DNA of 11,545 nt from the IMG/VR virus record IMGVR_UViG_2695420540_000010, one strand, 5' to 3'. This document shows, one piece after another, positions 1-8,462 of the stretch (positions are counted from its first letter, which is position 1; each line of letters begins with the position of its first letter). A program made the translations under genes and the position numbers. The DNA comes from a virus. Its lineage: Duplodnaviria; Heunggongvirae; Uroviricota; Caudoviricetes. A model generated the notes under the pieces. The model saw only the letters and a program-made list of their open reading frames with translations. It was not told the DNA's origin and did no database searches.

Positions 1-116
1 TGGTAGTGTCCGCTATTGCCAGTACACCTCAGGGTATAAGGGGTTATGGCCACCGGACTACCAAACGGCTGCCAGCCCTCTTTCAGTTTATGTGTCAGCT
101 TTTCCGCAAGATCTGA
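1..116 (+). pseudogene. Truncated 5' fragment of a paralog of the 76-aa ORF at 11315..11545 (start codon lies just outside the window)
   Basis: Frame 3 reads VVSAIASTPQGIRG... to a TGA at 114-116. The first 10 codons match the N-terminus MVVSAIASTP of the ORF at the opposite end, then diverge. Bases 1-31 are the exact reverse complement of 11514-11544. Confidence 0.3.
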
Positions 117-418
117 CGGCGGCGCCGCCCTGACAACATCATAGTGTTTAAATGCCATGGTTCTTTCCACCATCTGAAAAATAATTCTTTAAAATACCTG
201 ACATGTAATACAGAAAAAACACAAAACCATACCTTAAATAAAAACCTGATTATCAAGCAGATATGCATGGATAAACTACAAGACGAGATATAAACCACCC
301 TGCATTTAAATAAACAATAAACAACATCAGAAAAATAATTCTGCTCTATGGTTTACATTCAAAAATATCATTTATACTTTTCAGAACATCACCAGCAAGG
401 CATAAACAAGGAAACTAA

Positions 419-754
419 ATGAAGTGGATTGTGATTGATACAGTTATCCAGCCATCATGCGGAATATCTTTTTCAGTCATATGGAGTAAAATAAAATTAA
501 TAATCTGGTATCAATCGGATGCTTTCTTACCTCCTGAAAGTATATTTACACTGACTCACACAGGCATCATGCTCAATAACAAAGTGCTACCTGTAACCAT
601 TTACAACGTAGTACCATTCAATAAAACATTCTGGAATTCAATCAAAAATAGCCAGGAATGCCCTACAAATACAGATAACGTATTGAATGAATGCTTTAAT
701 AACCGTTGCACTCTGCAAATATGTCCTTATGGACTAAAACAACAAAGTCCATAA
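419..754 (+). CDS. Hypothetical 111-aa protein in an AT-rich island, opposite in orientation to the rest of the region; possible moron/cargo gene
   Basis: ATG start with AGGA about 8 nt upstream (acaaggaaactaaATG). Local GC roughly 32-38% by hand count of two lines, against about 50% elsewhere. Five Cys residues. No family recognised. Confidence 0.4.
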
Positions 755-790
755 GGAGTTTACTCACATCTGACAAAATCAATATAAACA

Positions 791-1010
791 GCCCCTCCGG
801 AGAGGGGCTGGAGAGTGGCGCTATGTGCCATTGCATGGTGCCGGGTGCCTCCCGGTGAATTCAGTACCAGCACCTGAATCCGCGATTATCCCATATACCT
901 ACTCGCTGATTGCCCCTCCGCACAGGGGGATTCACCATGCCAGTTTCTTTTAACAAACTCCCCGCAAACCAGACAACAGTCAACCGCCTGAATTGTGAAG
1001 TATTTAAAAA
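791..1010. repeat. Copy A of a ~220-bp repeat (near-identical to copy C at 2414..2635)
   Basis: Direct comparison: the sequence from gcccctccggagagggg through ggtgccgggtgcctcccggtgaattcag and cccctccgcacagggggattcaccatgcc to tttaaaaa recurs with only a few substitutions. Confidence 0.85.
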
Positions 1011-2667: not shown

Positions 2668-2744
2668 TGGCGCGTTGTACTGGATTCGAACCAGTGACCG
2701 ATTGCTTAGAAGGCAATTGCTCTGTCCGGCTGAGCTAACAACGC
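2668..2744 (-). tRNA. argO: tRNA-Arg (anticodon UCU)
   Basis: 77-nt cloverleaf on the minus strand with a fully paired acceptor stem GCGTTGT/ACAACGC, anticodon loop CTTCTAA, T-loop TTCGAAT and encoded CCA. Confidence 0.88.
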
Positions 2745-2757
2745 ATGATGCAGATAA

Positions 2758-2834
2758 TGGACCGCCATCGGGGACTTGAACCCCGCGCAGCCAGCTTCGA
2801 AGGCTGGCGCTCTTTCCTGATGAGCTAATGGCGG
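2758..2834 (-). tRNA. argN: tRNA-Arg (anticodon read as UCG)
   Basis: 77-nt cloverleaf: acceptor CCGCCAT/ATGGCGG, D-stem GCTC/GAGC, anticodon stem CCAGC/GCTGG with loop CTTCGAA, T-arm CGGGG-TTCAAGT-CCCCG, discriminator U, encoded CCA. The argN name rests on its position in an ileZ-argN-argO-type trio. Confidence 0.8.
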
Positions 2835-2841
2835 TATGTGA

Positions 2842-2917
2842 TGGTGGCCCTTGCTGGATTTGAACCAGCGACCTGGCGATTATGAGTCGCTCGCTCTCAC
2901 CACTGAGCTAAAGGGCC
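2842..2917 (-). tRNA. ileZ: tRNA with anticodon CAU, most likely tRNA-Ile2 (lysidine type) rather than tRNA-Met
   Basis: 76-nt cloverleaf GGCCCTTTAGCTCAGTGGTGAGAGCGAGCGACTCATAATCGCCAGGTCGCTGGTTCAAATCCAGCAAGGGCCACCA. Closely resembles the E. coli ileX/ileY tRNA-Ile(CAU) sequence as I recall it. Confidence 0.8.
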
Positions 2918-2957: not shown

Positions 2958-4016
2958 TCATCCGTTCTGGCTGACTAAATCCTGTACTTCCCGAACCGTC
3001 TGCTCAAAACGTTCAGTCTCCAGCTCAACGCCAATTGCACGACGCCCGAGCGCCAGTGCCGCTTTCACTGTCGAACCCAACCCCATGAAAAAATCTGCAA
3101 TCAGGTCACCCGGACGACTGCTAGCGCTGATTATCTGCTGCAGCATTTCTGCCGGTTTTTCGCACGGATGTTTCCCGGGATAGAACTGCACCGGTTTATG
3201 CGTCCACACATCGGTATACGGCACCTGCACCGTCACGCCAAAATACCGCCGCAGATGTTTATATTCACTCAGCAGCTCCGCATACTGCCGGTTCAGTGAG
3301 GTATACGTATCCACCAGCTGGTGGTGGAGCTTTTCCAGTTCACCACGCCGATGCTTCTCTTCTGCCACCCGGGCAAACAGCGCCTGTAATTTCAGATAAT
3401 CGCTTTCATTCGGCAACTGCCACTGACCGGCACTGAACCAGTGCGACACCATGTTTTTCTTTCCTGTGGCATCTGCAATCTGTTTTGCCGTTATCCCCAG
3501 GGCAGCTCGCGCATCACGAAAGTAAGAAATCAGCGGGGCCATCACATGCTGTTTCAGTGCACTGCCCTTCGCCGCATACCCGGCATCTTTCGGACGATAC
3601 GGCCCCTGATAATGTTCCGCGAACAGAATGCGCTCTGTGGCGGGGAAATACGCCCGCAGGCTTTCCTTGTTGCATCCGTTCCAGCGTCCGGACGGCTTCG
3701 CCCAGATAATATGGTTCAGCACACTGAAGCGTTCACGCATCATGATTTCGATATCAGATGCCAGGCGATGACCACAGAACAGGTAAAGACTTCCGGCAGG
3801 TTTCAGCACCCGCCAGAACTGCGCCAGACACTGGTCCAGCCACTTCAGGTAATCATCGTCGCCCTTCCACTGGTTATCCCAGCCCTCAGGCTTCACTTTA
3901 AAGTACGGCGGGTCCGTGACTATCAGGTCAACAGAATTTTCGGGTAACGACCGGATAAATTCCAGGCAGTCGGCGTTGATTAACTCACAACTGGATATTT
4001 TTACAGTATTAAGCAT
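2958..4016 (-). CDS. DNA methyltransferase, beta-class amino-methyltransferase (N6-adenine or N4-cytosine), apparently orphan
   Basis: 352 aa. Motif IV DPPY near the N-terminus (IVTDPPYF) and the SAM-binding FxGxG motif I near the C-terminus (DFFMGLGST), the circular-permuted order of beta-class enzymes. No restriction endonuclease candidate nearby. Confidence 0.8.
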   Translation of the reverse strand: MLNTVKISSCELINADCLEFIRSLPENSVDLIVTDPPYFKVKPEGWDNQWKGDDDYLKWLDQCLAQFWRVLKPAGSLYLFCGHRLASDIEIMMRERFSVLNHIIWAKPSGRWNGCNKESLRAYFPATERILFAEHYQGPYRPKDAGYAAKGSALKQHVMAPLISYFRDARAALGITAKQIADATGKKNMVSHWFSAGQWQLPNESDYLKLQALFARVAEEKHRRGELEKLHHQLVDTYTSLNRQYAELLSEYKHLRRYFGVTVQVPYTDVWTHKPVQFYPGKHPCEKPAEMLQQIISASSRPGDLIADFFMGLGSTVKAALALGRRAIGVELETERFEQTVREVQDLVSQNG

Positions 4017-4163
4017 GGATCATTAAGCCTGTCTCTGATAGGCTCATTCTGCTTTTGCGCAAAGCAGTGGGCCTGAGGTTTGCTTGTGAACCCAACGCAT
4101 GAGCAGATGGCTGGTGGGTGNNNNNNNNNNNNNNNNNNCCCCCACCAGCCGCCCATTTACCAC

Positions 4164-4191
4164 AAATAAAAAAGCCTTCACTGCGGAAGGC
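4164..4191 (-). terminator. Candidate intrinsic terminator on the minus strand, overlapping the stop of the 65-aa ORF
   Basis: Hairpin gccttc-actgcg-gaaggc followed on the minus strand by ttttttatttg. Confidence 0.45.
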
Positions 4192-4375
4192 GTCTGTAAC
4201 AACCGAACTGATAGTCTGCCAGACCCGCCATAACCAGCTGGGTCAGTATTAACTGGCAGCGTTCGCGTGAAAGGTAAGTATTCTGCGCTATCTCCCCGAC
4301 TGTCGCCGGTTCGGTAACGCTTAATTCATTAAACACCACTCTGGCGGTTTCTGTCATATCCTGCTGTTTTAGCAT
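4178..4375 (-). CDS. Small (65 aa) putative helix-turn-helix DNA-binding protein
   Basis: ATG start with GGAAAA about 5 nt upstream. Segment TVGEIAQNTYLSRERCQLILTQL looks like a helix-turn-helix. Sits between the Q candidate and the methyltransferase. Confidence 0.5.
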   Translation of the reverse strand: MLKQQDMTETARVVFNELSVTEPATVGEIAQNTYLSRERCQLILTQLVMAGLADYQFGCYRRLPQ

Positions 4376-4495
4376 GTCTTTTCCTTTTCCGGTTAACGTG
4401 ACACACCAATAACTCTTGTCGAAAAAGCCAGCAAGCTGAAAGACAGGTATTCACCGCCACCAGCGCGTTTACTGTACTGACGCGATTTCAGTCAT

Positions 4496-4558: not shown

Positions 4559-5314
4559 TTATGACGAATTTACCACAGATTCCGGAAAAATCAACCTAGT
4601 TACCTTTTTTAACTGCCGCTCAGCCCATGCTTCTTCAATATCAAACCGGGTCACCAGCGCATCATAAAATTTCTTAACTGTTTTTTCCCATGACGCGCGT
4701 GTTATCTGGTTTGTCACCTCGCATATAGCATTAAATGCCTCCGTTGATGGTAGTCTTTCATAGCCACGACCACCACAACGCTGGCAGTCTCTGATAACAG
4801 GCATACCACGTTTTACCGACTCTTCACGATGAATGGCGACACCACGCCCACGGCAATCCTTACAGGCGGTGGAAACCTCACCCTTTCCGCCACACTCCGG
4901 ACAGGCAACTTTTACCACCTCCCTGACTTTTTTCCATTCTTCCCAGTAAGACGGATACACACCTTTCGTACACTTTGCCCATACCGGCGGCTTACCATCC
5001 GGATACTGGATCTTGTTTGTAAAAACCTCGCTTTCAATAAATTTTTTTCCGTGACAGCAGGGGCACTGTTTTTTGCTCGCCGCGCTACGGGCATAATCTT
5101 CAAACGCATACGAAGCCATAATACGCATCACTGCCGGTTTTATTTCTGCCGGGAGTTTTCTTAACGCCGCCACGCGATCACACCGACTGAGTGCATATTC
5201 TGTCAGCAATTCTGTTGCCCGCTCTCTGTCATTCATACTAATGCCCATTTTCCCAAGGAACGCAGAAACCCCCATCTCAGCCCGATTCTGTGTCATGCCC
5301 TGCGCGGCCATCAC
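4559..5314 (-). CDS. Putative late-gene antiterminator Q-family protein (QuuQ/YdfT-like) with DnaJ-type CxxCxGxG zinc-finger repeats
   Basis: 251 aa (GTG at 5314, ATG at 5311). Lies downstream of rusA and upstream of a terminator and the tRNA cluster, the Q position in lambdoid phages. Contains CPCCHGKK, CPECGGKG, CKDCRGRG and CQRCGGRG. Family assignment is from context and memory. Confidence 0.5.
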   Translation of the reverse strand: MMAAQGMTQNRAEMGVSAFLGKMGISMNDRERATELLTEYALSRCDRVAALRKLPAEIKPAVMRIMASYAFEDYARSAASKKQCPCCHGKKFIESEVFTNKIQYPDGKPPVWAKCTKGVYPSYWEEWKKVREVVKVACPECGGKGEVSTACKDCRGRGVAIHREESVKRGMPVIRDCQRCGGRGYERLPSTEAFNAICEVTNQITRASWEKTVKKFYDALVTRFDIEEAWAERQLKKVTRLIFPESVVNSS

Positions 5315-5754
5315 ATCAGTGATACTCAGCGCATCTTTCGACGTTGAGGCCGATGCATCAGTCAGGCCGGGGGATTTTGGGGAGTAGTATTTCGGTAAAT
5401 CTTCNNNNNNNNNNNNNNNNNNNNNNNNNNNNNNNNNNNNNNNNNNNNNNNNNNNNNNNNNNNNNNNNNNNNNNNNNNNNNNNNNNNNNNNNNNNNNNNN
5501 NNNNNNNNNNNNNNNNNNNNNNNATGCGCATCACTACCGGTTTTATTTCTGCCGGAAGTTTTCTCAACGCCGCCACACGATCGCACCGACTGAGTGNNNN
5601 NNNNNNNNNNNNNNNNNNNNNNNNNNNNNNNNNNNNNNNNNNNNNNNNNNNNNNNNNNNNNNNNNNNNNNNNNNNNNNNNNNNNNNNNNNNNNNNNNNNN
5701 NNNNNNNNNNNNNNNNNNNNNNNNNNNNNNNNNNNNNNNNNNNNNNNNNNNNNN

Positions 5755-6097
5755 GGTAAATCTTCACCCCCAGACGTCCACCAGATACTGGCTGACCACG
5801 AACGATATTGATTTCATCAAACTGCTCATCGTCCATTAACACTCCCGCATGTGTCAGTGCATCCAGTGGTGCTTTCAGGATATTGTCCAGGTCACGACGG
5901 CGCTTATCCGGTGGCTCTGCAATAATCTTTATCGCCAGTCTTCCGGACAGGCTTAATTTCAGTCGCTGCTGACGGACAATAAGCGCCACATCCCGGCGAT
6001 AACGCTCACCGGCTTTTGATACAAAATATGTGTTGTCACGACGTCGCCAGTAAGTATTCACCGTCGGCGGATAAGGTAAAATAAACTCATGGCGCAT
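5755..6097 (-). CDS. rusA: Holliday-junction resolvase RusA (3' end lost in an N-run)
   Basis: N-terminus MRHEFILPYPPTVNTYWRRR and the motif PPDKRRRDLDN match the RusA family (E. coli RusA has PDRRRRDLDN). Start overlaps the upstream stop as TGATG. Confidence 0.75.
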
Positions 6098-6688: not shown

Positions 6689-8245
<1,557 letters not shown>

Positions 8246-8260
8246 NNNNNNNNNNNNNNN

Positions 8261-8462
8261 GCTTATCCGGTGGTTCTGCAATAATTTTTATTGCCAACCT
8301 TCCGGACAGGCTTAATTTCAGCCGCTGCTGGCGAACAATAAGCGCCACTGCCCGGCGATAACGCTCCCCGGCTTTTGATACAAAATATGTGCTGCCACGA
8401 CGACGCCAGTAAGTGTTCACCGTCGGCGGGTAAGGTAAAACAAATTCTATGCGCTCGGTCAT
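8261..8462 (-). pseudogene. rusA: Second rusA copy, N-terminal 67 codons only, cut off by the N-run next to the IS21 element
   Basis: MTERIEFVLPYPPTVNTYWRRRGSTYFVSKAGERYRR...IIAEPPDK. Roughly 90% nucleotide identity to 5886-6097 by eye. Its ATG directly follows the upstream stop (TAAATG). Confidence 0.6.

Follow-up and report, generated by a model that had tools for sequence, protein, structure and literature searches.

The window (the whole stretch of DNA analysed here, 11,545 nt) comes from a lambdoid prophage and covers its nin/late region in reverse orientation. The order Q, tRNAs, DUF3927, reversed iraL, DUF1737, holin, lysozyme is found in CFT073, clone D i14, 042 and vB_EcoS-813R8. Because the genes from Q to the tRNAs, and holin and lysozyme in these relatives, all lie on the minus strand, iraL on the plus strand is antisense to late transcription, in agreement with the initial annotation, which had described an unnamed ORF opposing the late genes. 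The surroundings of iraL are as follows.

1..158, minus strand: 5' part of a late-operon gene (DUF1737) that continues past the left edge, divergent from iraL (annotation of 042, CFT073 and vB_EcoS-813R8)
832..1000: start of the flank common to phages without iraL, with the right mosaic junction at 831/832 (comparison with phage mEp460_ev081)
1035..1166, minus strand: DUF3927/TciB-like small ORF, convergent with iraL (phrog_1470, E 8e-13)
1666-1742 and 2668-2917, minus strand: four tRNA genes (two Arg-tct, one Arg-tcg, one with a CAT anticodon)
2958-4016, minus strand: N6/N4 DNA methylase, between Q and the tRNA block (PF01555, E 8e-42)
4559-5314, minus strand: Q
5564-6097, minus strand: RusA ORF, second copy
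6689-8127, minus strand: IS21-family element (IstB-like ATPase, 6689-7489; IstA/Mu-transposase-like fragment, 7486-8127)
8124-8462, minus strand: short RusA N-terminal fragment adjoining the IS21-family element
1754-1841, 4121-4138, 5405-5523, 5597-5754 and 8246-8260: masked N runs, 398 bases in total

The gene itself and the elements around it lie within or next to an AT-rich island.

130..785: AT-rich island with the iraL cassette and the divergent intergenic region (GC 0.325; the sole N-free stretch at or below 33% GC)
307..323, minus strand: candidate PhoP box TGTTTA-TTGTT-TATTTA, at -79..-63 from the iraL start (11/12 to KGTTTA-N5-KGTTTA)
352..357, plus strand: -35 hexamer TTTACA of the iraL sigma-70 promoter (identical in CFT073; its position fits the published 5'-RACE start)
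373..378, plus strand: -10 hexamer TATACT of the same promoter, after a 15-bp spacer (identical in CFT073)
386, plus strand: iraL transcription start; by 5'-RACE the mRNA begins ACATCACCAGCAAGGCATAAACAAGGAAAC (Hryckowian et al. 2014, PMC4045071), which is window 386-415
408..413, plus strand: Shine-Dalgarno sequence AAGGAA (gap of 6 nt from AGGA to the ATG at 419)
419..754, plus strand: iraL coding sequence, ATG start, 111 aa, RssB anti-adaptor of the IraM/IraL family
659..724, plus strand: codons of the invariant C-terminal motif C81-P...C92...C97...I-C102-P-x-G (alignment of 17 sequences)
724..757, plus strand: hairpin with a perfect 12-bp stem and a loop of 10 nt, extending over the stop codon (752-754)
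789..810, minus strand: GC-rich hairpin of 9 bp with a T-rich tract after it, terminator-like (kept in the Stx2-phage cassette)

The initial annotation had described a drop in GC to about a third at 300-780 against about half elsewhere, and this is what we measured: GC is 0.331 (33.1%) in that interval and 0.345 in the ORF, as compared to a mean of 0.495 (sd 0.05) for N-free windows of 481 nt, which places 300-780 at z = -3.3. Because the composition tool scores N as non-GC, the background was recomputed without the N runs, the GC of the window then being 0.493. In the sliding-window analysis all 481-nt windows as low as 300-780 start at 123-312, and with the N runs removed this region is the sole true AT-rich island of the window. 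Its true extent is about 130-785, beyond the interval first described, because the intergenic region 159-418 (260 bp, GC 0.296) belongs to it; its flanks have a GC of 0.57 (1-129) and 0.48 (786-1500). A further apparent island at 5300-5850 (apparent GC 13-27%) is an artefact of two masked N runs. An AT-rich dip at 1500-1900 (near 1750-1850) was rejected as mostly the N run at 1754-1841, and a 'duplicated tRNA-Arg with an insert' near 1500-1900 was dropped, that N run lying there.

The Shine-Dalgarno sequence of the ORF is a good one. The reasonable ribosome-binding site and the five cysteines (positions 14, 81, 92, 97 and 102) noticed initially are all present in the ORF at 419..754, and so is the promoter-like pair at 352-378, which had been called weak. 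The published start lies 7 bases 3' of the -10 hexamer; because it maps to 386, the pair is placed where the iraL sigma-70 promoter is expected. Its 15-bp spacer is suboptimal, and the pair is absent from the output of a generic promoter scan that was confined to 16-18 nt spacers. Folding of the 5' leader (386-440) is unremarkable (z 0.05). IraL levels are raised in a fur mutant (PMC7157518); a Fur box scan gave a score at chance level, reached by 435 of 500 shuffles, and the rise is thus probably indirect.

Judged by sequence, the ORF in the AT-rich island is iraL, an already characterised E. coli gene; the initial annotation had left it unnamed, the known gene being unrecognised there. Comparison with CFT073 IraL gives 110 of 111 identical residues, the sole difference being S74 here and L74 in CFT073. 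The comparison sequence is the potB prophage of the uropathogenic E. coli strain CFT073, in which IraL is c1429 (Hryckowian et al. 2014, mBio, PMC4045071). The published definition of iraL asks for at least 95% nucleotide identity in the coding region and at least 96% in the promoter/upstream regulatory region (PMC4045071), with a CFT073 potB prophage-type context as a third criterion. We found 334/336 identical nucleotides (99.4%) in the coding sequence, 131/133 in the promoter region (-100..+33), and the same neighbours in the same order. Over window 100-1000 the identity is 895/901, with six differences; base changes fall at -1 (385) and in the leader (416). CFT073 shares the DUF1737, DUF3927 and tRNA-Arg neighbours and the position between Q and holin in a lambdoid prophage, but it differs to the right of the tRNA-Arg at 1666-1742, where the window has a prophage backbone of another type, with the DNA methylase and a Q unlike that of CFT073; PPompW-like phages match this backbone at about 91% identity.

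A named relative is K-12 IraM (b1160; YcgW/ElbA), with which IraL shares family, length class, all five cysteines and, as far as sequence can tell, fold. The two align over all 107 residues of IraM with no gaps (65/107 identical, E 4e-52); IraL has been described as an IraM paralogue of ~59% identity (PMC4045071). Like iraL, K-12 iraM is AT-rich (GC 0.34) and prophage-associated; however, it lies next to e14/icdC rather than in a lambdoid late region, its promoter is unrelated, and its expression depends strongly on PhoP and rises in Mg2+ starvation; IraL, by contrast, acts in log phase. IraL also has four C-terminal residues (QQSP) beyond those of K-12 IraM. In the PDB the sole match is to 8twd, the IraM-RssB complex, through its IraM chain (E 6e-31). 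The NCBIfam model NF007393 gives 162 bits against a cutoff of 121, residues 1-110 lying on profile positions 1-113/114, and phrog_4407 matches IraL over its full length with 241 bits. PF11183 was the precomputed Pfam label of all homologues (P0001-P0020), but our local Pfam-A scan of IraL, K-12 IraM and three homologues gave no match to it at E up to 10. The only match in these scans was Nairovirus_NSm (Pfam-A, E 0.056), which we take as chance.

Homologues fall into 20 protein clusters, all of them from Escherichia, and the frame is gapless in three lineages at 69-77% nucleotide identity; dN/dS is 0.10-0.16, a rough ratio because dS is near saturation. Such values indicate that iraL is under purifying selection. 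The initial annotation had named a lack of homologues with a conserved frame, or of translation, as what would speak against the gene; homologues exist, and the protein has been detected (PMC4045071, PMC7157518). The residues of IraM that contact RssB (15 listed; Brugger et al., PMC10844676) are identical in IraL at 11 of the 15 positions (I4, I6, C14, F18, W22, K26, W30, I42, I61, Y62 and P66). The four changes from IraM to IraL (T13S, H63N, I64V and L75I) are conservative or semi-conservative. Cluster I, which faces the RssB receiver domain, has all five of its contacts identical. The four changes are confined to clusters II and III, directed at the C-terminal domain of RssB and the linker, so that IraL may bind in a mode other than that of IraM. 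In the bacterial two-hybrid assay IraL contacts the N-terminal receiver domain of RssB only, whereas IraM contacts both domains (PMC4045071), and the pattern of changes, as far as residue comparison can tell, agrees with that published interaction.

The C-terminal tail is the other conserved part. Across 17 sequences, with identities as low as 53%, residues C81, P82, C92, C97, I101, C102, P103 and G105 never vary, whereas C14, an RssB-contact residue in IraM, does. In IraM the tail was removed from the crystal construct as proteolytically unstable, and was termed less conserved and flexible (PMC10844676); that paper makes no mention of cysteines or zinc. Our AlphaFold2 model, built on a 16-sequence alignment, has a mean pLDDT of 59.9 and values below 50 in the tail, at which the clustering of the four C-terminal cysteines is not readable. 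Secondary structure is predicted as seven strands followed by a helix at 69-76, which fits the description of IraM, in a model that is poor by the same pLDDT. A Foldseek search with it returned 8twd_A as the sole significant match (TM 0.37-0.46), so identity of fold rests on sequence, the model being poor and the TM score low. The core of IraM (residues 1-78) is a PmrD-like beta-barrel (Brugger et al., PMC10844676). PmrD, a PhoP-induced connector that protects phospho-PmrA, binds a receiver domain as IraM does, its target being PmrA where that of IraM and IraL is RssB; PmrD was not among the Foldseek matches of the low-confidence IraL model.

The limits of the cassette can be read from phages that carry other DNA at this site. 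Phage mEp460_ev081 is 99.7% identical from 832 rightward, and to the left of 832 has unrelated DNA with its own hairpin at the end of it. The left junction, near 305, is approximate and comes from the Stx2-phage cassette, in which the sequence in common with iraL includes the DNA upstream of the gene, from ~305 on, and the GC-rich hairpin at 789-810. From the mEp460_ev081 junction and the shared Stx2-phage cassette, the mobile unit is therefore about 305-831 and comprises promoter, gene and hairpins. Region 715-830 folds at -44.5 kcal/mol (z -5.9). Both strong hairpins (724-757 and 789-810) follow iraL, the T tract being present only for the latter and on the minus strand; on the plus strand no clear U tract or canonical intrinsic terminator was seen 3' of iraL. 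The site at 789-810 faces transcription arriving from the late-operon side.

With a length of ~0.5 kb and a site in the lambdoid late region between the Q/tRNA block and the lysis genes, the cassette has the character of a phage 'moron'. It has its own promoter (hexamers and a published start on the strand opposite the late operon), a deviating composition (GC 0.325 vs 0.503), and a presence that varies with a sharp junction, as seen in mEp460_ev081. Lambdoid morons such as lambda bor and lom, and stx, are likewise extra genes of the late region, with deviating GC and their own promoters, expressed in the lysogen and varying in presence among related phages. However, they are co-directional with the late operon, and iraL is antisense to it; its product targets host regulatory proteolysis, where theirs act at the cell surface or on a eukaryotic host. 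The initial suggestion of separately acquired DNA is supported by the replacement to the left of 831/832, and each part of the overall claim (an AT-rich acquired module with a real coding gene and its own promoter, set against late transcription) finds support.

The function of IraL has been described in CFT073, where loss of iraL (delta-iraL strain) shortens the log-phase half-life of sigma-S from ~5 min to ~2.5 min; supplying iraL under its native promoter reverses this and also raises sigma-S in K-12, and His6-IraL copurifies with CBP-RssB (PMC4045071). Published RNA-seq has iraL up by 1.6 log2 at 37 °C. Binding to RssB, the effect on sigma-S half-life and the transcription start were shown for the 99%-identical CFT073 protein (L74) rather than for the S74 allele carried here. 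For the window, the expectation is that in a lysogen iraL would be transcribed from its own sigma-70 promoter, opposite to and independent of the Q-dependent late operon, and that the 111-aa cytoplasmic protein, with the beta-barrel core of IraM, would bind the response-regulator-like adaptor RssB. RssB so bound would be unable to deliver sigma-S (RpoS) to the ClpXP protease, and the outcome would be a longer sigma-S half-life, with the general stress regulon on even in exponential growth. The minus-strand hairpin and T tract at 789-810 may shield iraL from antisense read-through in the lysogen, and in lytic growth the Q-modified polymerase would override this hairpin. The low GC presumably marks foreign origin and a probable target of H-NS; H-NS reportedly represses iraM. 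Taken as a whole, the evidence makes us highly confident that we see in this island the iraL cassette, a ~0.5-kb moron with its own promoter, whose product would block RssB and thereby stabilise sigma-S.

The closest alternative is that the ORF is IraM proper, a PhoP/PhoQ-induced anti-adaptor that stabilises sigma-S in Mg2+ starvation. The databases lean that way: the RefSeq product name of the identical protein is 'anti-adapter protein IraM', and the score exceeds the NF007393 cutoff. However, NF007393 is a 'subfamily' model that combines the IraM and IraL paralogues, and the published criterion parts iraL and iraM with no overlap (PMC4045071). The ORF has only 61% amino acid and 68.8% nucleotide identity to K-12 iraM, short of the iraM criterion of at least 95%, as compared to 99% to iraL; its promoter region is unrelated to that of iraM, its context is the lambdoid late region rather than the vicinity of e14/icdC, and the published iraL phenotype is one of log-phase expression. 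A regulatory argument for IraM is the PhoP-box-like repeat at -79..-63, a reversed direct repeat that is the only match of at least 11/12 to the PhoP-box consensus in the window (TRF finds AATAAAC x2.3 at 309-324). The homologous position in the Stx2 phages 1717 and EH2201 also scores 11/12, with the mismatch in the other half-site, but 5.5% of shuffles of 159-418 reach the same score. We consider the IraM reading very improbable.

The remaining alternatives concern what kind of ORF this is. A small protein with five cysteines and a hydrophobic N-terminus, encoded where phages have toxin genes such as stx as morons, could be a secreted or membrane peptide rich in cysteine (cargo such as a toxin, a bacteriocin or a lipoprotein), and a signal-peptide prediction had been proposed initially. 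That idea is unsupported, since Ile4 and Ile6 form a cytoplasmic binding surface in the IraM-RssB complex, so that the N-terminus would be retained with no cleaved leader; residues 1-78 of IraM form a beta-barrel, IraL copurifies with RssB in the cytoplasm, and QPSC, as we read it, is no lipobox. A secreted product is exceedingly improbable. We give equally little credence to an ORF that arose by chance in non-coding, AT-rich DNA separating late-operon modules, a reading that can be entertained insofar as AT-rich DNA, stop-codon rich as it is, can still contain spurious ORFs and no significant Pfam-A family was found. Against it stand the gapless frame and low dN/dS in three lineages, the 20 protein clusters, the curated NCBIfam and PDB matches, and the published protein-level data; the conservation data already refute it.

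Of 5426 complete E. coli genomes, 1446 carry the iraL cassette, at one to three places each. A third lineage of the IraM/IraL family, with 74% amino acid and 77% nucleotide identity to IraL, was found in 41 phage records, mostly of Stx2c and Stx2a converting phages (in phage 1717 at locus 5115-5438, ACI43140.1; in the Stx2a phage EH2201 at locus 4115-4438, labelled 'iraM'). The protein has 107 aa as compared to 111 for IraL and keeps the five cysteines. Its gene, like iraL, is antisense to the late operon and lies between Q and holin, but it adjoins stx2B, directly 3' of it and upstream of nanS-p/yjhS. In many Stx2c phage records the ORF is unannotated ('none'), and a literature search on the Stx2-phage copy found nothing relevant.

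Three observations thus lie beyond the literature searched: the invariant C-terminal cysteines, the PhoP-box-like repeat and the stx2B-adjacent third lineage. PhoP and Mg2+ were outside the scope of the IraL paper (PMC4045071), and iraL may not be purely constitutive, with a candidate PhoP input through the reversed box at 307-323. One could further speculate that the four-cysteine tail is a small zinc- or redox-sensitive knuckle controlling the stability or activity of the anti-adaptor and, separately, that iraL does receive PhoP input via 307-323, a proposal that we rate as doubtful. If it were true, a prophage cassette, including the neighbour of stx2B, would couple metal/redox and Mg2+ signals to the stability of RpoS.

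Since this is a characterised gene in its usual prophage context, the feature is one already known, and the presence of iraL shows that the window derives from an iraL-carrying lambdoid prophage and nothing more. The practical value is one of annotation. RefSeq and NCBIfam say IraM, PHROGs labels phrog_4407 'unknown function', and the Stx2-phage ORF often has no label; the IraM and 'unknown function' labels hide the experimentally defined paralogue name IraL. Beyond this correction, two small leads on regulation are what the locus offers.

Homology is of the CFT073/042 type at 29-1753 and of the PPompW type from 1668, the switch falling inside the first tRNA-Arg (1666-1742); because homology switches there, this tRNA gene is a possible point of mosaic recombination, an uncertain one given the adjoining N run. 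Matches to 042 and CFT073 end at 1753 because of the N run at 1754-1841, one instance of N runs interrupting BLAST matches; they also yield false or truncated ORFs, such as 5344-5811 on the plus strand and the C-terminal end of 5564-6097 on the minus strand. The tRNA with the CAT anticodon is called Ile by RefSeq in relatives. The methylase at 2958-4016 has the position that it occupies in the Stx2a phage EH2201 and is absent from the CFT073 and 042 versions. The two RusA ORFs on either side of the IS21-family element suggest an IS21-family insertion into rusA or a duplication of the rusA region, and a DUF968/YdfU gene also lies on the minus strand.
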